This document shows positions 4,983 through 41,916 of a DNA stretch of 64,000 nucleotides, piece after piece. Each line of letters starts with the position of its first letter. Within the stretch, counting starts at the first letter, position 1. The DNA lies in NCBI GenBank assembly GCA_030651475.1, contig JAUSEW010000029.1:21777-85776 (forward strand), read 5' to 3'. The translations under genes were made by a program, and so were the position numbers. The notes below the pieces were generated by a model. The model saw nothing but the letters and a program-made list of their open reading frames with translations, was not told where the DNA came from and searched no databases. This DNA comes from Candidatus Levyibacteriota bacterium. GTDB taxonomy: Bacteria > Patescibacteriota > Microgenomatia > Levybacterales > UBA12049.

Positions 4983-6170
4983 ATGGCAGAAGCAACTAAA
5001 TATCAAAGAACCAAACCGCATGTTAATATAGGAACCATTGGTCATGTTGACCACGGTAAGACCACTCTTACTGCGGCTATTGCAACAGTTTTGTCTAAAA
5101 AAGGAATGGCGCAGGCCAAAAAGTACGAAGACATAGATAATGCTCCGGAAGAAAAAGCAAGAGGCGTTACCATAAATCTTACTCATATTGAATATGAGAC
5201 AGAAAAACGTCATTATGCTCATATCGATGCTCCTGGACATGCAGATTACATAAAAAATATGATTACAGGCGCCGCTCAAATGGATGGCGCTATTTTGGTT
5301 GTTTCAGCACCGGACGGGCCAATGCCTCAAACAAGAGAGCATATTCTTTTGGCACGACAAGTCGGAGTTCCTGCAATTGTAGTATTTCTTAACAAAGTAG
5401 ATATGGTACAGGATCAGGAATTATTAGACTTGGTAGAAATGGAAGTCAGAGAACTTTTGACTAAGTACCAATATCCGGGAAAAGACACTCCTATTATAAG
5501 AGGTTCGGCTCTTAAAGCTTTGGAGGGAGATCCGGAAGCGGAAAAACAAATAATGGCCCTAATGGATGCAGTTGATACATTTATACCTACTCCAAAAAGA
5601 GATACGGATAAGCCATTCTTGATGCCGGTTGAGGATGTTTTCTCTATTAAAGGCAGAGGAACAGTTGTAACAGGCAGAATTGAAAGAGGAATTGTCAAAA
5701 TTAACGATGCGGTAGAGATAGTCGGACTTAAAGAAACAAAACCAACTATAGTAACAGGTGTTGAAATGTTCAAAAAGCAATTGGATGAGGGTCAGGCAGG
5801 AGATAATGTCGGAGTTTTGCTTCGAGGAATTGAAAAAACAGATGTGGAAAGAGGACAAGTTGTTGCCAAACCGGGAAGTATAACACCCCATAAAGAGTTT
5901 GAGGCGGAGGGATATATTCTTACCAAAGAAGAAGGCGGACGCCATACACCATTCTTTACAGGATACAGGCCTCAATTTTACATTAGAACAACCGATGTGA
6001 CTGCGGAAGTTACTCTTCCAAAAGGTGTAGAAATGGTAATGCCTGGAGACAATACCAAAATGACAGTTAAGCTTATTGCTCCGGTAGCTTTGGAAGAAGG
6101 GCTTAGATTTGCCATCCGCGAAGGCGGAAAAACAGTCGGAGCCGGCGTTATCTCCAAAATAATCGCTTAA
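4983..6170 (+). CDS. tuf: translation elongation factor Tu
   Basis: 395 aa; [25 protein letters not shown] motifs. Confidence 0.98.
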
Positions 6171-18674: not shown

Positions 18675-19478
18675 ATGATTAATATTAAAACGAATGAAGA
18701 GATTGAAATAATGCAACTGGGGGGGGAAATTTTAGCTGATGTTTTGTTTAAGGTTTTAGAGCATGCGAAAGTTGGGGTTTCGGAACTTGAATTAGATAAA
18801 TTGGCAGAAGAGTTGATTCTGAAAGCAGGAGGAGAACCTGGATTTAAAAAAGTTGCAAATTATAATCATACAATATGCGTATCCACGAACAATGTTGTGG
18901 TACACGGAATACCGACTAATTATAAATTTAAAAAAGGGGATGTTGTCGGAATAGACTGCGGAGTGTATTTTAAAGGATTTCATACGGATGCCGCACATAC
19001 GGTGCGAGTTAAAAGTTTCCCGCCTCAGCGGGATCCCTCAAGCGATGGGACAAAGTTTAAAGTTCAAAGTTCGGATGGGGTAGATAGGTTTTTAGAAACT
19101 GGAAAAAAAGCGTTGGAAAAAGGAATAGAGCAGGCGAAAATTGGCAATAGAGTGGGGCATATTTCTAAAGCAATACAGGATACGGTTGAAGGAAAAGGTT
19201 ACTCCATAGTTAGAAGTTTGGTTGGGCATGGGGTAGGCAGAAAACTTCATGAGGATCCTGAAGTTCCCGGATTTTTAAATGTTCCCATTCAGAGAACACC
19301 GCTTCTTAAAGAGGGAATGACTATAGCAATTGAAGTCATTTACAATATGGGCAAAAGAGATGTTGTATATGCTAATAATGATGGATGGACGATTAAAACT
19401 AAAGATGGAAGTATTTCCGGCCTTTTCGAAAGAACAGTTGCCATAACCAAAGAGAGTCCTAGGATACTAACCGTATAG
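18675..19478 (+). CDS. map: methionine aminopeptidase type I
   Basis: 267 aa; pita-bread motifs (GIDCGV, GHGVG, EPEV), operon position. Confidence 0.9.
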   Translation: MINIKTNEEIEIMQLGGEILADVLFKVLEHAKVGVSELELDKLAEELILKAGGEPGFKKVANYNHTICVSTNNVVVHGIPTNYKFKKGDVVGIDCGVYFKGFHTDAAHTVRVKSFPPQRDPSSDGTKFKVQSSDGVDRFLETGKKALEKGIEQAKIGNRVGHISKAIQDTVEGKGYSIVRSLVGHGVGRKLHEDPEVPGFLNVPIQRTPLLKEGMTIAIEVIYNMGKRDVVYANNDGWTIKTKDGSISGLFERTVAITKESPRILTV

Positions 19479-19549
19479 CATTGCTCTTTCTAGGCCAATT
19501 TGATATAATTTAAGATTACAAGCCAAAAGTTTGGTTTGATAATTTTTTT

Positions 19550-19768
19550 ATGGCTCATCAGGGGTCTTTTGAAGTAGAAGGAGTAGTAAAGGAATCATTG
19601 CCCAACACTCTTTTTAGAGTAGAATTATCTAATAAGAGTATTATTCTTTGTCATTTATCAGGCAAGATGAGGGTGCATTTTATAAAGATTTTGCCCGGAG
19701 ATAAAGTTCGGATAGAAATGACACCGTATGATAAGGCAAAAGGAAGAATAGTATATCGTTATAAGTAA
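19550..19768 (+). CDS. infA: translation initiation factor IF-1
   Basis: 72 aa; S1-like IF-1 consensus (G.V.E.LPN..F.V.L.N......SGKMR...I.ILPGDKV..E.TPYD..KGRI..R). Confidence 0.95.
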
Positions 19769-19847
19769 ACGGTTAGTTAATTAGCGTCTAGCGGTTAGTT
19801 TGAAACGAACTAAACGCTGAATGCTAGCAAACTAAACGCTATATGAT

Positions 19848-19961
19848 ATGAAAGTTCAAGCCAGTATAAAAGCAAGATGTGCTAAATGTAAAATTCTTAA
19901 AAGAAAAGGTGTTCTAAGAGTGGTGTGTGAGAACCCTAAGCACAAACAAAGACAAGGATAA
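19848..19961 (+). CDS. rpmJ: 50S ribosomal protein L36 (not in ORF track, below length cut-off)
   Basis: translated by hand: [37 protein letters not shown]; Cx2C...Cx4H zinc ribbon. Confidence 0.9.
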
Positions 19962-19962
19962 T

Positions 19963-20388
19963 ATGAGAATTGCCGGATTTAATATACCTGACGAAAAAAG
20001 AGTAGACATAGCGCTTACTTATCTTTATGGTATAGGAAGAAATAATGTGGTTAGCGTTCTTGCCAAGGCTCAAGTTGATCCTACAGTAAGAGTTAAGGAT
20101 CTTTCTGAAGATGAGCAGAAGAAAATCCAGCAGGCACTAGATAAATACAAAATAGAGGGGGATTTGAGAGCGGAAGTTACATCGAACATTAAAACCCTAA
20201 AAGAAATTGGTTCCTACAGGGGACAAAGACATGCCAAAAATCTACCTGTAAGAGGACAAAGAACCAGATCTAATGCGCGAACAAAAAGAGGTAAGAGGTT
20301 AACGATTGGTGCTATCAAAAAAGAAACGGCTGTGAAGATGGGTATTGTTGATAAAGAAGCTGATTCTAAGGAGCCGGTTAAAAAATAA
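19963..20388 (+). CDS. rpsM: 30S ribosomal protein S13
   Basis: [14 protein letters not shown] start (ATG 19963 preferred over 19927); S13 consensus. Confidence 0.93.
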
Positions 20389-20393
20389 TTTTT

Positions 20394-20795
20394 ATGGACG
20401 AACTTAAAAAAATTAAAAAAGAGGAAAAAAAGAAGAAAAATGTTTCCGTATCGAGTAGAGGCAGAATATACATAACTTCTACATTTAATAATACGTTAGT
20501 TACAATTACCAACGATAAAGGAGATACTATTGCTTGGAGTTCGGCCGGCGCTGCAGGATTTAAGGGTACCAGAAAATCAACGCCATATGCCGCAAGTTCA
20601 GCTGGAGAAGCGGTCTCCAGGAAAGCAGCAGAAAAGGGTTTAAAAACGGTTGATGTGTACGTAAAAGGTCCAGGTTCAGGCAGAGATTCTGCTCTTAGAG
20701 CGATTAAAGCAGGCGGATTATCAATATCGTCAATTTCCGATATAACGCCCATTCCCCACAACGGACCTAGGGCAAAAAAGAAAAGGAGAATATAA
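20394..20795 (+). CDS. rpsK: 30S ribosomal protein S11
   Basis: 133 aa; S11 pattern (NNT.VT.TD..G......SAG..GFKG.RKSTP.AA). Confidence 0.95.
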
Positions 20796-21400
20796 TGGCT
20801 AGATATATAGGACCAAAACATAAATTAGCAAGAAGAGAAGGAGTAAATATTTTAGATAAGCAATCTCCGAGTCTTTTGAGGCGTTTAAATACGCCGCCCG
20901 GAATGCATGTGGTAAGGGGAAAAAAGCGAATGTCTGAATATGGAGAACAGCTTAGAGAAAAACAAAAAGCAAAAGCAGTATACGGACTTTTGGAGAAACA
21001 ATTCAAGAGTTTAGTAAGAACCGTAGAAAAGAAAAAAGGAGAAACAGGAGAGATGCTTATTCAGCTTTTGGAAACAAGATTGGATAATATCGTATACAGA
21101 TTGGGTTTTGCGAAAACAAGAGCACAGGCTCGTCAATTTGTTTCCCACAAACACATACTCGTTAACGGTAAAAAAATTAATATTCCCTCTTTCCCGATAA
21201 AAATAGATGACGTTATTTCACTTGTCCCAGCCATACAGAATAATCCGCAAGTTGTAGCTCTGACTAAGGAAAAAAATGAGAATCTTTTACCTTTCTTAAA
21301 AAGAGAAGCCTTAGTTGGGAAACTTATAAGAATGCCAAAGAGAGAAGATCTAGTATTTCCGTTCGATTTGCAACAGATTATTGAATATTATTCAAGATAG
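20795..21400 (+). CDS. rpsD: 30S ribosomal protein S4
   Basis: 201 aa; [16 protein letters not shown]. Confidence 0.95.
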   Translation: MARYIGPKHKLARREGVNILDKQSPSLLRRLNTPPGMHVVRGKKRMSEYGEQLREKQKAKAVYGLLEKQFKSLVRTVEKKKGETGEMLIQLLETRLDNIVYRLGFAKTRAQARQFVSHKHILVNGKKINIPSFPIKIDDVISLVPAIQNNPQVVALTKEKNENLLPFLKREALVGKLIRMPKREDLVFPFDLQQIIEYYSR

Positions 21401-22337
21401 TGGTACAATACACTTTATGTTAAATCCTAAGTTTACAGTGAAAGAAGAAAAGGCCAGCGCAGAGTATACAGAGTTTATTATTGAGCCTTTAGATCCTGGT
21501 TATGGGCAAACATTGGGAAATGCGTTGAGACGCGTACTTCTTACTTCTATCCCTGGAGCAGCGGTTACATCCGTTAGGATTTCCGGAGTAAAGCATAGAT
21601 TTTCTACAGTTCCGGGCCTCAAAGAAAATATAGTTGATCTTTTGCTTAACATTAAAGGTCTCAATATCCGTTTGCTCAATTCGAAAACATCCAGCACGAT
21701 CAAGCTTTCAGTTAAAGGGCAAAAAAAGATATTGGCGCAAGATCTGGATCTTTCGGAGGACGTTGAAGTTGTAGATAAAAATCACTATATAGGATCTCTA
21801 AGCGACAAAAAGGCAAAATTGGAGATAGAGCTAACAGTTGAAAGAGGTATGGGTTATTCATTGGCTACTGAAAGAAAAATTGCGACTGTTGGCGTAATCC
21901 CAACAGATGCCGTCTTTAGTCCTGTTAAAAGAGTCAGTTATGAAATTCAAGCGACCAGGGTTGGCAGACAAACAGATTTAGATAAGTTAATTCTTAAAGT
22001 TTGGACCAATGGCGTAATTACTCCTCGTGAAGCATTAGATGAAGCCGCAAGAATCGCATCATCTTACTTTCTGCAAATTTATGAACCAAAAACTTTCGTA
22101 AGTTCAGAAAGCTCTTCCTCCAGTGCAGTTTCCGATAGTCTTTTAAAACTTACGGTAGATGAACTTGATTTGCCAACTAGAATCTACAATAGTCTTAGAA
22201 ACGGAGAAATAGAAACAATAGGGCAACTATTAGAGAAATCAAAAAAAGACTTAATGTCAATGAGAAATATGGGAATAAAATCTATAGCAGCAATAGAAGC
22301 AAAACTTAAAGAAAAAGGCGTATCGTTAACGGTTTAA
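21381..22337 (+). CDS. rpoA: DNA-directed RNA polymerase subunit alpha
   Basis: 318 aa; N-terminal dimerisation domain and C-terminal domain pattern (VDELDLPTRIYNSL). Confidence 0.93.
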   Translation: MNIIQDSGTIHFMLNPKFTVKEEKASAEYTEFIIEPLDPGYGQTLGNALRRVLLTSIPGAAVTSVRISGVKHRFSTVPGLKENIVDLLLNIKGLNIRLLNSKTSSTIKLSVKGQKKILAQDLDLSEDVEVVDKNHYIGSLSDKKAKLEIELTVERGMGYSLATERKIATVGVIPTDAVFSPVKRVSYEIQATRVGRQTDLDKLILKVWTNGVITPREALDEAARIASSYFLQIYEPKTFVSSESSSSSAVSDSLLKLTVDELDLPTRIYNSLRNGEIETIGQLLEKSKKDLMSMRNMGIKSIAAIEAKLKEKGVSLTV

Positions 22338-22452
22338 GACGCTCGGGGGTCCTGTCAGAAGTTTCCCTCCCGCCAGTGCTCCTGAAGCTTCGCTCAGATG
22401 CGCGCTGTCGGGAACCTTTCCACTTCTGCCACCCCTTTAGTTTTTAATTCAT
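22338..22452 (+). other. GC-rich, highly self-complementary intergenic element between rpoA and rplQ
   Basis: about 105 nt of markedly higher GC than surroundings; long imperfect pairing GGGGTCCTGTCAGAAG.../...CTTCTGCCACCCC with nested inner stems. Confidence 0.5.
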
Positions 22453-22950
22453 ATGAAAAAAAATGTTTTCGGAAGACAATTTAAAAGAGACAAAAATCAA
22501 AGAACTGCTTTGTTTAAAGGCTTAATGTCAGCGTTAATTATAAATGGCAGAATAAAAACAACGCAAGAAAAAGCAAAAGCGATTAAGGGAGATATAGAAA
22601 AATTAGTAACCAAATCCAAAAAAGGCGAGGCTTCGAGAAGGCTCTTGCAAAAAGTTTTGGCCCCAAATTTAGTAGACAAGTTGATAAAAGAAATAGGGCC
22701 AAGATTTTCTAAAAGACCGGGAGGATACACGAGGATTATAAGAATCGGACGAAGAGTATCTGATAATGCGTCAACGGTTTTCATAGAATGGGTGGAAGGG
22801 GAAACAGTAAGAATAGAAAAGCCCGTGCTCCAAATAAGTGAGCCAAAAAAGAAGGAAGTCACAAGGGAAGTTGAAAGTAAAAAATCCCAGCCAAAGGCTG
22901 GTCGTCCAAAGGATGGAAAAACAATAGTTAAAAAGGAGTCTAAAAAATAA
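22453..22950 (+). CDS. rplQ: 50S ribosomal protein L17 with Lys-rich C-terminal extension
   Basis: 165 aa; L17 core and operon position. Confidence 0.9.
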   Translation: MKKNVFGRQFKRDKNQRTALFKGLMSALIINGRIKTTQEKAKAIKGDIEKLVTKSKKGEASRRLLQKVLAPNLVDKLIKEIGPRFSKRPGGYTRIIRIGRRVSDNASTVFIEWVEGETVRIEKPVLQISEPKKKEVTREVESKKSQPKAGRPKDGKTIVKKESKK

Positions 22951-23393
22951 TGAGAAAAGATACCCAAGCAACAAAAGCAACGGATATAAAAAGAGTGTGG
23001 CATTTAATCGATCTTAAAGGACAAACCTTGGGAAGAATTTGCAGTAAGATCGCCAATCTTTTAATGGGTAAATCAAAGCCATACTTCATAAGAAATTTGG
23101 ATTGCGGAGATTACGTAGTGGCAATAAATGCGAAAGAAGTAAAAGCTACGGGTAACAAAGAGCTATTAAAAAAATATTATTATTATTCCGGTTATCCTGG
23201 CGGTTTGAGAACAGAAACCCTTGAGAATTTAAGAGATAAAAACCCTAAGGAAATTATCCGCCATGCGGTATCGGGAATGTTGCCGCAGAATAGATTAAGA
23301 GATAGAATGTTTACCAGATTGTTTATTTTTCCAGATGCCAACCATTCATACAAAGACAAATTTTCGGCCAAAGGCCGATCAGCCTCTGGCTGA
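22950..23393 (+). CDS. rplM: 50S ribosomal protein L13
   Basis: 147 aa; WHLIDLKGQTLGR. Confidence 0.93.
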   Translation: MRKDTQATKATDIKRVWHLIDLKGQTLGRICSKIANLLMGKSKPYFIRNLDCGDYVVAINAKEVKATGNKELLKKYYYYSGYPGGLRTETLENLRDKNPKEIIRHAVSGMLPQNRLRDRMFTRLFIFPDANHSYKDKFSAKGRSASG

Positions 23394-23399
23394 AATAAT

Positions 23400-23861
23400 A
23401 TGGAGGATAAAAAAATAATAGAACCAAAAGTTGATAAAAAGGATTATATCTTCGCAGTTGGCAGACGTAAGGAGGCCATAGCCGGAGTGCGTTTTCATAA
23501 AAAAGATAAAGTTTCGTGGGGGGATATAACGGTAAACAAAGGAGAAATATTTGTTAATAAAATGCCGGCAGAAAAATATTTCGGAAGCCAAGCTGTAAAT
23601 GTATATAGCGAGCCATTGCGTCTTGCTAATATGGAGAATAAGTTTGCCATAACGGTTATTGTCAGAGGCGGAGGAAAATTTGGACAATTGGATGCTATGG
23701 TTTTGGGTATAGCAAGAGCGTTAAATCAATTAGACAGAGATAAATTTCGTCCGGCTCTTAAAAAACAGGGATTTCTTACTCGGGATTCCAGAACTAGGGA
23801 ACGTAGGAAAGTGGGAATGGGCGGTAAAGCAAGAAGAAGAAAACAAAGTCCTAAGAGGTAA
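23400..23861 (+). CDS. rpsI: 30S ribosomal protein S9
   Basis: 153 aa; C-terminal GGKARRRKQSPKR. Confidence 0.93.
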   Translation: MEDKKIIEPKVDKKDYIFAVGRRKEAIAGVRFHKKDKVSWGDITVNKGEIFVNKMPAEKYFGSQAVNVYSEPLRLANMENKFAITVIVRGGGKFGQLDAMVLGIARALNQLDRDKFRPALKKQGFLTRDSRTRERRKVGMGGKARRRKQSPKR

Positions 23862-24456
23862 ACTTTTTATAAAGTTTTATAAATTCTTCATTTTTTGACA
23901 AGAGTTTAGTTTCTTGCTCGCACCAGACAGAATAAGTACCGGGTTTTTGTTCGATTTCCCTTAAGAACTCCTGCCATTTTATCCATCTTACCCTCTCTAC
24001 CTCGCCGCGATTTAATAAAGGTTTTTTATCGCTAAACGCAATAAGGACAGGACAGATCTCATTTTCAACAATACCATTCATTTCTGCTTTGTAAGAAAAG
24101 TCGGGTAAAATTTCAAATAACTTATCTATCTTAATCCCCAATTCAAAATTTAATCTTCTCTTAGCAGCATCTATATTTGATTCATTAAGCATTGGGTGTC
24201 CGCAGACGGAATTTGACCAAACCAGAGGCCACGTCTTTTTCTTACCGCTTCGTTGCTGAAGAAGTAATTGTCCCTTAGAATTGAAAAGAAAAACGGAAAA
24301 TGCCCTATGTAAAGGAGTATTACTGTTATGTGTTGCTAATTTCGGAGCAATCCCCAATACGTTATTATTTTTATCAACTAAAACTACATAATCTTCTACT
24401 TTTTCCATAATGCAAACAAAAAACTTATCAGTAAGTAGATTAACAAAATCTGCCAA
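23851..24456 (-). CDS. idi: isopentenyl-diphosphate delta-isomerase type 1 (Nudix)
   Basis: HRAFSVFLFNSKGQLLLQQRSGKKKTWPLVWSNSVCGHP matches IDI-1 signature; true start possibly internal Met (MEKVEDYVV). Confidence 0.85.
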   Translation of the reverse strand: MADFVNLLTDKFFVCIMEKVEDYVVLVDKNNNVLGIAPKLATHNSNTPLHRAFSVFLFNSKGQLLLQQRSGKKKTWPLVWSNSVCGHPMLNESNIDAAKRRLNFELGIKIDKLFEILPDFSYKAEMNGIVENEICPVLIAFSDKKPLLNRGEVERVRWIKWQEFLREIEQKPGTYSVWCEQETKLLSKNEEFIKLYKKFTS

Positions 24457-24728
24457 AGCATAACTGAAATGAAAACAGTGCTAAGAAATAGAGAGATAGC
24501 TTCTCTTTTTAATCCATACGTATTTATCAGAACAGACCCAATTCTCCCAAACATAAATAAAATAATAAGCCCAACGAAGGGAGAGAAAATTACAGGTAAA
24601 AGGACAGGACGTCTTGTAACTTGCCTTATGGTTATAAATGGGTGAAATATAAGACCAATAAGAGTTTTTGTAAAAATGTACGCGCTAAAAATTAAAAATG
24701 TACTTTTTTTCATAGTCCTTCGATACAT
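24396..24728 (-). CDS. small integral membrane protein
   Basis: 110 aa, three hydrophobic segments. Confidence 0.35.
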   Translation of the reverse strand: MYRRTMKKSTFLIFSAYIFTKTLIGLIFHPFITIRQVTRRPVLLPVIFSPFVGLIILFMFGRIGSVLINTYGLKREAISLFLSTVFISVMLWQILLIYLLISFLFALWKK

Positions 24729-24781
24729 TCGATAAACTCAGTATCGCACTGAGCGAAGTCGAATGTGCGACAAGCTCAGGA

Positions 24782-25009
24782 TTATAACTTTCCAAAAATT
24801 TTCAAAATAAATTCACTGTAATTTTTCCCCAAAATGAAATGCAGGATTAAAGTAAAAATAATAGAAAGGGGAATTAAGATTCGCCAAGGATGATTTCCTA
24901 GCCAAGAACTTACGGAAAGAAATACTTTAGGCAGAAACATGCTCCTTAAAATTTTCTCCTGCTCTTGCGCCCTTTCTTCCAAAGTCTTAAGGAATTCGTG
25001 TTCGTTCAT
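24782..25009 (-). CDS. small membrane protein immediately downstream of ECF sigma factor (candidate anti-sigma factor)
   Basis: 75 aa, one TM segment; 4-bp overlap with sigma gene. Confidence 0.35.
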   Translation of the reverse strand: MNEHEFLKTLEERAQEQEKILRSMFLPKVFLSVSSWLGNHPWRILIPLSIIFTLILHFILGKNYSEFILKIFGKL

Positions 25010-38151: not shown

Positions 38152-38622
38152 ATGGAGGAGTTTGAGAAGTTTTACAATAAGGCGCTGAAGTTCTTATCCT
38201 ATCGTCCTCGATCGGAAAAAGAAATCCGCGATAAATTATTTCAAAAAAAGACGCCTCAAGATTTAATTGAAAAAATTGTTTCAAAGCTTAAAGAACAGAA
38301 GTTTATTAATGATGAAGAATTTGCGAAATTGTGGATTGAAAGCAGAAATAGATCTAAGCCACGCAGTTTACGTTTGATTAAATTAGAATTAAAGCGAAAA
38401 GGAATCGAAGGAGACATTATTGACAAAATGACTAATGATGAAGGATTAATGATTAAAGATTTGGAATCGGCTAAAAAGCTTGTTGCAAAGAGAATGGCAA
38501 GATTGAAGGGTTTGGATAGGCAAAAGATTTATGAAAAACTGGGGAGGTTTTTGGCTTCAAAGGGATTTGGTTGGGATACGATAAAACAGGTGATTGACGA
38601 AGTATTAAGCGAAGGAGTATAA
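38152..38622 (+). CDS. recX: regulatory protein RecX
   Basis: 156 aa; helical repeat pattern typical of RecX; directly downstream of recA. Confidence 0.75.
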   Translation: MEEFEKFYNKALKFLSYRPRSEKEIRDKLFQKKTPQDLIEKIVSKLKEQKFINDEEFAKLWIESRNRSKPRSLRLIKLELKRKGIEGDIIDKMTNDEGLMIKDLESAKKLVAKRMARLKGLDRQKIYEKLGRFLASKGFGWDTIKQVIDEVLSEGV

Positions 38623-38792
38623 TATTTCTAAGGATAAAGACAATAGATTTGTCAGCCCCACTTCGTCCCGATTAGATCGGGACTTCGAGGGGCAAGAGGT
38701 AATTTTAGGAAGTTATGGCTATAAATCCTAAATCGACAAATATTCAAAAAGGGCATTAGTTTGCTCTTTTCTTCTATTGTCTCCATAAAATT

Positions 38793-41516: not shown

Positions 41517-41916
41517 CTAGGAAGAAGATCCGTTACTCCGCCAATCGGCGGAGAGGAAAGTCCAGACAGGCGTAAACCCTTGCACCAGTAATGGTGCAGG
41601 GTAAAGACGGGGATGGAGCGTAAGCTCCGACTAGCAATAGCTGGTATTCTAATCCTTTACTCACATGCGGGATTAGAAGCAGGTTCTGAATTAACAGGAC
41701 TTGAGAGCAACAGAGACGAGTGAGAGTGAAACGGGTAATCCCACCTGCTGCAACTTTCGAACGATGCGTTTGACCATCTTTACGGGAGCATCAAAGAAAG
41801 GCATCACTTAAAAAGTGGCGTATGTGACTAATTATCACAAACGAGATAGATTACGGACTATAGTCCTGAGAGAAATCGAAGGATTAAAAACAGAATCTGG
41901 CTTATTCTCTTCCTAG
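41517..41916 (+). ncRNA. rnpB: RNase P RNA (bacterial type A-like)
   Basis: universally conserved P4 strands GAGAGGAAAGTCCAGAC and ACAGAATCTGGCTTA; P1 pairing CTAGGAAGA/TCTTCCTAG; P3 hairpin CTCCGCC-aatc-GGCGGAG. Confidence 0.85.

Follow-up and report, generated by a model that had tools for sequence, protein, structure and literature searches.

What is the G+C-rich, self-complementary element that lies between rpoA and rplQ in an AT-rich Candidatus Levyibacteriota genome, and does it act there? We examined a 64-kb stretch of contig JAUSEW010000029.1 (hereafter the window), which holds the ribosomal-protein and rpoA cluster of Candidatus Levybacteria, within the Microgenomates of the candidate phyla radiation (CPR). 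In the list of open reading frames (ORFs), rpoA (21417–22337, plus strand) ends with a TAA stop codon at 22335–22337 and is followed, after a 115-nt spacer (22338–22452), by rplQ (22453–22950, plus strand), which starts with ATG at 22453 and carries no Shine-Dalgarno (SD)-like motif. An earlier note had reported the element in this spacer and proposed that it might be a terminator, a ribosomal-protein leader or autoregulatory site for L17 or L13, or a small non-coding RNA. Comparison with other sequences points elsewhere: the element is very probably one copy of a mobile palindromic repeat family of Levybacteria. The joint explanation, in which this repeat also took on a local role as terminator or attenuator, appears rather probable to us.

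The composition and self-complementarity that had drawn attention to the spacer were both confirmed. Its G+C fraction was 0.56, compared with 0.367 for the whole window, and positions 22338–22417 formed the most G+C-rich 80-nt segment of the 64 kb (0.638; 4.2 standard deviations over the mean), outranking tRNA and RNase P RNA. The plus-strand RNA of the spacer folded at −43.6 kcal/mol (z = −3.0; 0 of 200 dinucleotide shuffles as good), and the element alone folded at −39.2 kcal/mol (z = −4.4) into one hairpin without branches, with roughly 35 bp in a composite rod of 92 nt that is interrupted by a bulge and internal loops. In the minimum-free-energy folds, the basal helix P1 pairs GGGGGT (22345–22350) with ACCCCT (22431–22436). 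It is followed by a 3-nt bulge, CCT (22351–22353; columns 12–14 of the family alignment A1, invariant or near-invariant), and by P2, in which the variable, covarying arm G-T-CAGAAGT (22354–22362, including a pyrimidine–pyrimidine position at 22355) pairs with ACTTCTG-C-C (22422–22430). Both helices had been recognized in the earlier note; the inner helix that it proposed, TTTCCC with GGGAAC, gave way to a better one, P3, formed by TCCCG-C-CAGTGC (22368–22379) and GCGCTG-T-CGGGA (22402–22413). Across the family, 96.8% of P3 cells are paired, its T.G wobble is invariant and its 3′ strand is near-invariant. The apical hairpin P4 (22381–22400) is the part that varies among copies in both length (about 6 to 70 nt) and sequence. 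Directly 3′ of the rod lies a T-rich tract, TTTAGTTTTT (22436–22445), which ends 7 nt before the rplQ ATG.

The family to which the element belongs was collected by an exact search of metagenome contigs with its 21-nt core, TTTCCCTCCCGCCAGTGCTCC (22362–22382). This pattern matched 65 contigs; for a 21-mer, chance alone would give about one match at most. A covariance model, R1, identified 69 copies in these contigs and one in the window (22340–22440, plus strand; 93.6 bits, E = 5e-22, model positions 1–102); neither R1 nor blastn found a second copy within the 64 kb. Viral contigs contained no match to the core and no copy with either conserved half. Copies are 90–150 nt long and G+C-rich (about 60–70%; measured range 51–71%, compared with 34–47% for the contigs that host them), and follow a common layout: (GC)TC-GGGGTCCTG-YC, a 6-nt arm, TTTCCCTCCCGCCAGTGCTCC and a hairpin of 6–70 nt, and then TGCGCGCTGTCGGGAGCCCTTCC, the complementary arm and RYC-ACCCC-TC(GC). 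Among 55 distinct copies, the rod structure paired 88.4% of cells, as against 78.9% in shuffled alignments (reached by 0 of 500) and 35–50% in a control with a slid pairing partner, and two-sided changes occurred in 165 cells compared with 57 in shuffles (again 0 of 500). Each of the five P2 pairs (columns 18–22 with 132–136) showed GC, AU, CG and UA. Three P1 positions were GC in 55 of 55 copies, and the outer P1 pair covaried (GC in 29, CG in 20, AU in 3). Aligning the 69 copies to the covariance model gave the same pairing and covariation numbers; over both alignments, slid controls paired 33–55%. The fold was a single unbranched hairpin in 52 of the 55 copies, and stability showed no strand asymmetry (plus strand more stable in 18 of 55), as expected for a palindrome at the DNA level. 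Within P2, columns 16 and 138 of A1 (window 22355 and 22429) oppose two pyrimidines and never form a Watson-Crick pair; they switch jointly, being T.C in 30 copies, C.T in 24 and T.T in 1. This switch could reflect a split of the family into two lines of descent, or else a non-canonical pair or recognition feature that is required.

Most copies lie inside protein-coding genes. Of 62 complete copies, 43 were located within long read-through ORFs and 19, including that of the window, were intergenic (about 17 distinct intergenic sites). Grouped by gene, the 43 ORFs correspond to 23 different hosts; the element lies in sense in 18 of these and in antisense in 5. Hosts identified by Pfam are DNA topoisomerase I (Topo I), IF-2, DnaX, a Mur-ligase/FolC-type protein and dihydroorotase; further hosts are leucyl-tRNA synthetase (LeuRS, identified by sequence), thioredoxin reductase (from source annotation) and membrane glycosyltransferase-like proteins. 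The Pfam domains of the hosts flank or span the inserts, and the Topo I insert lies within the Topoisom_bac domain. All eight read-through ORFs that were looked up exist as gene calls in JGI, ENA or NCBI. The reading frame is fixed in each orientation, being shared by 33 of 34 copies in sense and by all 11 in antisense (binomial p = 4e-15 and 6e-6 per copy), or 17 of 18 and 5 of 5 when counted per host gene. In sense, the element encodes (R/A)GPxxxFPPASAP…(V/M)RAVGxPSxxxTP, and in antisense …G(R/L)(A/P)(D/T)(S/A)(A/R)(H/T)…GALAGGKxxxGP; the encoded loop is rich in Pro, Ala, Ser and Gly. A peptide-profile search of a set of 5.8 billion proteins returned only four short ORFs at E ≤ 1, the query being too short. 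Phase between the two conserved halves is kept in 38 of the 43 ORF copies compared with 8 of 19 intergenic ones (p = 3e-4), and long apical inserts are free of stop codons in ORF copies, whereas both intergenic copies with long inserts (in contigs L125 and L131) contain stops. The window copy, in keeping with its intergenic position, is out of phase and meets a TAG. Thus, frame, phase and stop-free inserts together argue that the copies within ORFs are translated. In an AlphaFold model of one Topo I host (P0125), the 34 encoded residues (204–237) have a predicted local distance difference test score (pLDDT) below 50 and no secondary structure, and form a loop between confident β-strands at 192–201 and 242–250; the model is of moderate quality overall (mean pLDDT 68.6). 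The insert would accordingly be tolerated as a surface loop of its host protein, at least in this model.

Several neighboring repeats came to light in the same proteins. The peptide RQ(P/S)RVSDDAQL… recurs in-frame at the Topo I hot spot (homologues P0136, P0142, P0145 and P0151) and also adjoins the G+C-rich element in an unrelated protein (host ORFs of contigs L092 and L114); it probably represents another repeat family. A LeuRS ORF on the reverse strand of contig L078 carries AT-rich hairpins of period 7 in-frame at residues 570–625, 828–883 and 200–228. Two of them are copies of a 168-nt TCAGAAAAC-type hairpin encoding SENSENQKIRILRKLGESEDQRIGISAKSDNLTHRLTDLPTRRKTESSEFSE, and at the third site GTCAAAAGT arms flank a G+C-rich hairpin. 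In the window, fusA and an ORF at 40.6 kb contain inverted repeats that we checked as candidate in-ORF elements; both proved to be ordinary coding sequence.

Orthologous sites in different states point to movement of the family. One site in Topo I was intact, visibly decayed or empty among the 30 closest orthologues of one host (Levybacteria by source names), in comparisons of orthologues 70–90% identical, and in other Topo I proteins a copy lies some 200 residues farther along. Two LeuRS orthologues that are 59% identical carry two copies each, at four sites of which each is filled in one protein only. The ends of the element read (GC)TC-GGGG...CCCC-TC(GC) or TTGC-GGG...CCC-GCAA, and the TC on either flank may either belong to the element or represent a duplication of 2 nt. 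Taken together, the dispersal of the family, its covarying stems, the fixed-frame copies within genes and the filled, decayed and empty sites argue for a mobile palindromic repeat resembling the Rickettsia palindromic elements (RPEs). In these respects, the family behaves like a non-autonomous mobile element of the RPE or MITE kind (MITE, miniature inverted-repeat transposable element), dispersed in AT-rich Candidatus Levybacteria genomes and probably also in related CPR bacteria. Several points weigh against this identification. There is no transposase, no clear terminal inverted repeat beyond the palindrome and no definable target-site duplication, and neither solitary element ends nor a parent insertion sequence (IS) turned up in the 840 kb of loci searched, so that mobility is read from the distribution of the copies only. 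Collection by an exact 21-mer makes the conservation of the core partly a matter of construction, and many copies are related by descent, so that copy counts overstate independent events (23 host genes rather than 43).

RPEs (Ogata et al. 2000, summarized in PMC10969869) are palindromic repeats inserted in-frame in unrelated housekeeping genes and in spacers. The present family shares with them a length of about 100–150 nt, the lack of coding capacity of its own, dispersal in a reduced, AT-rich genome (PMC10969869), in-frame insertion in housekeeping genes, a conserved peptide for each family and insertions tolerated in surface loops. It differs in its host, a CPR phylum; in being strongly G+C-rich relative to that host; in a core that remains near-identical across lineages with about 67% RpoA identity; in using both orientations, each with its fixed frame; and in having one subfamily that recurs at a single operon junction in distant lineages. 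The likeness is one of features rather than of compared sequences, and we would expect no sequence relationship between the two. ORF-fusing MITEs such as QMITE1/2 of Coxiella burnetii (reviewed in PMC10969869) behave similarly as ORF-fusing repeats, but MITEs are defined by IS-derived terminal inverted repeats and target-site duplications, which are not established for this element, and the element has no known parent IS. Dispersed terminator-like repeats also come to mind, since the window copy, taken with its T-tract, resembles an intrinsic terminator and lies between two cistrons; however, the T-tract lies outside the repeat and was seen at rpoA|rplQ and a few other places (within an ORF in L093, L106 and L126, and in L127), and most copies of the element are inside genes. 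Repetitive extragenic palindromic (REP) sequences and REPINs are G+C-rich extragenic palindromes of 20–40 nt that are mobilized by REP-associated tyrosine transposases (RAYTs), form intragenomic populations, often lie at the 3′ ends of genes, and can stabilize mRNA or terminate transcription. The present copies are 90–150 nt long and intragenic in 43 of 62 cases, whereas REPs are 20–40 nt and strictly extragenic; REPs are also tied to a RAYT gene, and none was seen here, no search having been aimed at RAYTs. Our searches of the open-access literature on CPR bacteria, Patescibacteria and Levybacteria brought up no description of elements of this kind. The kind of element is known (RPE- or MITE-like), and within the literature searchable the family, its host phylum and its cassette-like behavior at an operon junction are new.

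The same distribution bears on the proposals that the element is a regulatory or functional RNA. A structure that binds L17 (or L13 or S9) and represses translation of rplQ-rplM-rpsI would fit its position directly upstream of rplQ, a gene without an SD motif, and a predicted L17 leader has been published upstream of rplQ in Actinobacteria and Proteobacteria (Eckert & Weinberg 2020, PMC7247131). The window element shares with that leader its place in the spacer and a hairpin structure, but the window spacer lacks that leader's conserved 3′ hairpin, which bears the GGUACCUGAUNCGG loop. The Rfam/Infernal scan that the earlier note had called for matched no family at the site: Rfam 15 gave no match to the element at gathering thresholds, a cmscan of 22250–22550 (301 nt, lax filters, E ≤ 10) returned no leader family and nothing meaningful, and eight other loci with family copies were likewise without a match. 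Weak matches to PsrR1, CRISPR-DR46 and SNORD111 were dismissed as chance, and signal recognition particle RNA, hepatitis delta virus-like and twister ribozymes and the cobalamin riboswitch, suggested by short look-alike motifs, were rejected on differing topology, the variable apex and the lack of an Rfam match. Covariation among orthologous spacers, another check proposed, was not possible because these spacers are not homologous; the spacer is unrelated even in genomes with 92–96% RpoA or 91–95% L17 identity. Furthermore, unlike the L17 leader, this element has copies in dozens of unrelated contexts, the majority of them within coding genes such as those for Topo I, LeuRS and IF-2, and in both orientations, a distribution that a site reserved for L17 or L13 could not have. 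The leader or autoregulation proposal is thus effectively refuted by where the element occurs, and we give it next to no credence. A trans-acting or self-processing RNA, be it a non-coding RNA gene, a ribozyme, or an intron-like or ribosome-bypass element, would account for strong conservation, a high G+C content in AT-rich genomes, the conserved bulge and internal loop and the covarying stems, and with no Rfam entry it would be new. Nevertheless, the element is antisense in 5 of 23 host genes and its stability shows no strand asymmetry; frame, phase and stop-free inserts of 70 nt would be unnecessary in a segment that is excised or bypassed, and copies decay in place as ordinary coding sequence. 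The evidence of translation and the antisense copies together argue against an intron, ribozyme or bypass element, and the many, mostly in-gene copies in both orientations do not support the small non-coding RNA gene suggested earlier. We regard an RNA of this kind as very improbable.

If the element is a mobile repeat, how did it come to occupy this junction? The RpoA protein of the window retrieved 68 loci, of which those with specific and credible record names were Levybacteria/Levyibacteriota, Microgenomates or Patescibacteria; an exact look-up of the protein found none on record. A look-up of the window L17 returned a single sequence, an identical 1-kb contig (L069; Logan SRR13727527_890185). 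This independent assembly of the window sequence breaks inside the hairpin, at window position 22354, and illustrates how palindromes of this kind fragment short-read assemblies. The locus set comprised 72 ribosomal-protein loci (366 kb), 68 from genomes (one of them, L065, a Clostridia metagenome-assembled genome) and four short Logan contigs, and R1 detected no copy in it apart from L069, the second assembly of the window's own copy. None of the rpoA–rplQ spacers extracted from 64 related loci, or from four closer contigs found through L17 homologues, resembled the window sequence. The nearest relatives (L028 and L072, with 96% RpoA identity; L001, with 92%; and L071, with 92% L17 identity) carry an AT-rich hairpin of GAAGATA-like 7-nt periods, and L070 (91% L17 identity) carries a CACGAAT-type hairpin. 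By contrast, two contigs from distant lineages, L086 and L124, hold the element at the same junction, with the window's variable arm (CAGAAG/CTTCTG), a near-identical apical hairpin and the T-rich tail. Their RpoA is 67–68% and their L17 57–59% identical to those of the window, and flanking coding DNA 71–78%, yet the spacers are 92–93% identical over 108–112 nt; for other pairs of loci whose proteins are this far apart, spacers are 70–85% identical where alignable, and about 90% spacer identity is typical of pairs with around 93% RpoA identity. Moreover, the last rpoA codons of the window and its TAA stop agree with L086 and L124, and not with its close relatives. A spacer identity so far above that of RpoA indicates that the whole spacer was replaced horizontally, as a cassette. 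Such replacement is not limited to the G+C-rich element, as the AT-rich GAAGATA spacers L001:3422-3550 and L010:3425-3559 are 93% identical over 115 nt at an RpoA identity of 67.5%. As a result, the clade of the window, L028, L072, L001, L071 and L070 contains three unrelated spacers, each shared with a distant lineage. Since most other Levybacteria hold an unrelated AT-rich hairpin there, usually with a T-run, we infer that the element replaced a resident hairpin. In the L124 copy (5775–5873), an internal deletion has removed the GCGCGCTG segment from the 3′ core, and the score is 73 bits compared with 94–99 for the window and L086; this decaying copy indicates that copies can decay at rpoA|rplQ too.

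What the exchanged hairpins have in common suggests a local role. A spacer of at least 45 nt was present at rpoA|rplQ in 62 of 67 Levybacteria, with a strong fold in 54, whereas the rpsM|rpsK, rpsK|rpsD, rpsD|rpoA, rplQ|rplM and rplM|rpsI junctions typically measure 0–17 nt. Nearly all of the long spacers form one long hairpin (z from −2 to −9). T-runs of at least 4 nt occurred within the last 25 nt of 53 of 63 spacers, with a median distance of 4 nt from their end to the rplQ ATG; no spacer of the 63 had an A-run of 5 nt or more on its 5′ side, and an SD-like motif was found in 1 of 68 rplQ genes. In 47 of 63 spacers the sense strand had the greater stability of the two (Wilcoxon p = 7e-6), which fits a structure used in RNA. 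In the window, the element is co-oriented with rpoA and rplQ and would have to be transcribed together with both genes; the space between the T-tract and the rplQ ATG leaves no room for a promoter. It would be read in sense within an rpoA–rplQ mRNA, whose transcript would form the hairpin of about 35 bp with its G+C-rich base abutting UUUAGUUUUU. In this position it may have taken over the job of the AT-rich hairpin that it replaced, providing a stable stem a few nucleotides after the rpoA stop codon and a U-rich tract before an SD-less start. That job may be partial intrinsic termination (attenuation), or the protection or processing of a 3′ end, and the hairpin would separate rpsM-rpsK-rpsD-rpoA from the tightly packed rplQ-rplM-rpsI unit. 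That unit itself ends without a spacer or terminator hairpin, because rpsI (plus strand) and a convergent minus-strand ORF (23851–24456) overlap by 11 nt at 23851–23861.

The terminator idea of the earlier note remains plausible but secondary: the G+C-rich stem base (22345–22350/22431–22436), with ACCCC followed by the U-tract TTTAGTTTTT, resembles both an intrinsic terminator and the layout common at this junction in Levybacteria. Other properties count against it. Canonical intrinsic terminators are compact (stem about 5–14 bp, loop 3–8 nt), and this hairpin greatly exceeds them in length and irregularity; a promoter and terminator consensus scan of 19000–25000 did not flag it, nor did it find a convincing promoter between the hairpin and rplQ. 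The T-tract is interrupted, and with rplQ starting 7 nt after it and no room for a promoter of its own, termination cannot be efficient. In addition, the excess of G.U pairs in the sense strand of the relatives' spacers could stem from a transcription-associated C-to-T bias rather than from selection. As the T-tract is common to the L086 and L124 junction copies but not general in the family, any terminator function would belong to this cassette and not to the repeat as such. On balance, we put forward the terminator or attenuator role tentatively, at a level that stops just short of calling it probable.

Two other accounts of the junction have to be set beside this role. The hairpins might be neutral passengers, selfish DNA that gathers at rpoA|rplQ and map|infA simply because these are preferred or tolerated landing sites. 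Hairpins of the G+C-rich and AT-rich families do occur at other spacers and within ORFs, spacer types are swapped between distant lineages, five of the 67 genomes (L016, L020, L056, L060 and L068) have no long spacer at rpoA|rplQ, and the internal deletion in L124 suggests decay. Against neutrality, 62 of 67 genomes keep a spacer of this length, most with a hairpin, while neighboring junctions are minimal; orientation is consistent, since T-runs follow the hairpin on its 3′ side and A-runs never precede it on the 5′ side; the sense strand is significantly more stable; and each replacement of the hairpin sequence leaves a hairpin with a T-rich tail in place. We consider neutrality unlikely, though less so than an aid to translation initiation, in which the hairpin would keep the U/A-rich initiation region of rplQ single-stranded, or bring the rpoA stop and rplQ start together for re-initiation, without any effect on transcription. 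The near absence of SD-like motifs from rplQ and the closeness of the T-run to the ATG agree with such an aid, as does a hairpin that spans the spacer from just past the stop codon to just short of the start, and infA in the window shows the same arrangement of hairpin, T-run and ATG. This evidence is purely positional, however, and nothing in it separates initiation from attenuation; the five genomes with short, hairpin-less spacers also speak against it, and we think this account improbable.

The AT-rich hairpins deserve description in their own right. Long hairpins of 20–50 bp with arms of about 7-nt period occur in rpoA|rplQ and map|infA spacers of L001–L068 (for example, L008:3425-3540, L038:3413-3538 and L045:2940-3081), and map|infA, which is the classical spc/alpha operon boundary, is the other frequent hairpin site among the Levybacteria loci. 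They fall into families named after their periods (ATCTCAA, TCGAAAT, GAAGATA, GTCAAAA, TCAGTTT, CACGAAT and TACCAAT), recur at other intergenic sites in other genomes and look like a second class of mobile hairpin elements. The window has a period-7 hairpin of its own at infA|rpmJ (19769–19850; TAGCGTC/TAGCGGT/TAGTTTG … CAAACTAAACGCTA), and at map|infA (19519–19549) a small hairpin and T-run abut the infA ATG, in the same SD-less-start layout as at rplQ. Speculatively, Levybacteria may host a community of mobile hairpin elements, the G+C-rich family together with several AT-rich families of about 7-nt period, that serve as interchangeable hairpin and U-tract modules at rpoA|rplQ and map|infA, also enter essential proteins in-frame, and are overwritten horizontally between lineages down to 67% RpoA identity; we regard this broader picture as doubtful. 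If it were true, it would imply an unknown mechanism of site-directed insertion or recombination, possibly targeting sites with a hairpin and T-run, in bacteria whose genomes do not exceed about 1 Mb.

Two further structured features of the window stand apart from these subjects. At 41521–41909 (plus strand) lies an RNase P RNA that falls below the curated Rfam threshold (class B model, 50.1 bits against a gathering score of 97; E = 1e-12) and covers the full length of the model; it is a divergent, CPR-type RNase P RNA. Downstream of the ORF at 38152–38622, a G+C-rich hairpin of 18 bp (GCCCCACTTCGTCCCGAT…ATCGGGACTTCGAGGGGC, 38655–38693) has no T-run and is unrelated in sequence to the rpoA–rplQ element.

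If the mobile-repeat identification is true, selfish DNA inside protein-coding genes, so far known from Rickettsia and a few others, would extend to the CPR. The genomes affected are among the smallest and supposedly most streamlined, and the proteins hit include Topo I, LeuRS, IF-2 and DnaX. It would also mean that a hairpin in a CPR spacer that is G+C-rich, covaries and has no Rfam match can be a mobile repeat and not a riboswitch or ribosomal-protein leader, and that "insertions" in CPR proteins can be repeat-derived. Finally, the rpoA|rplQ junction would represent a natural experiment, in which unrelated hairpins swapped horizontally preserve a hairpin and U-tract before an SD-less gene, and these swaps would make intercistronic control in CPR bacteria testable.

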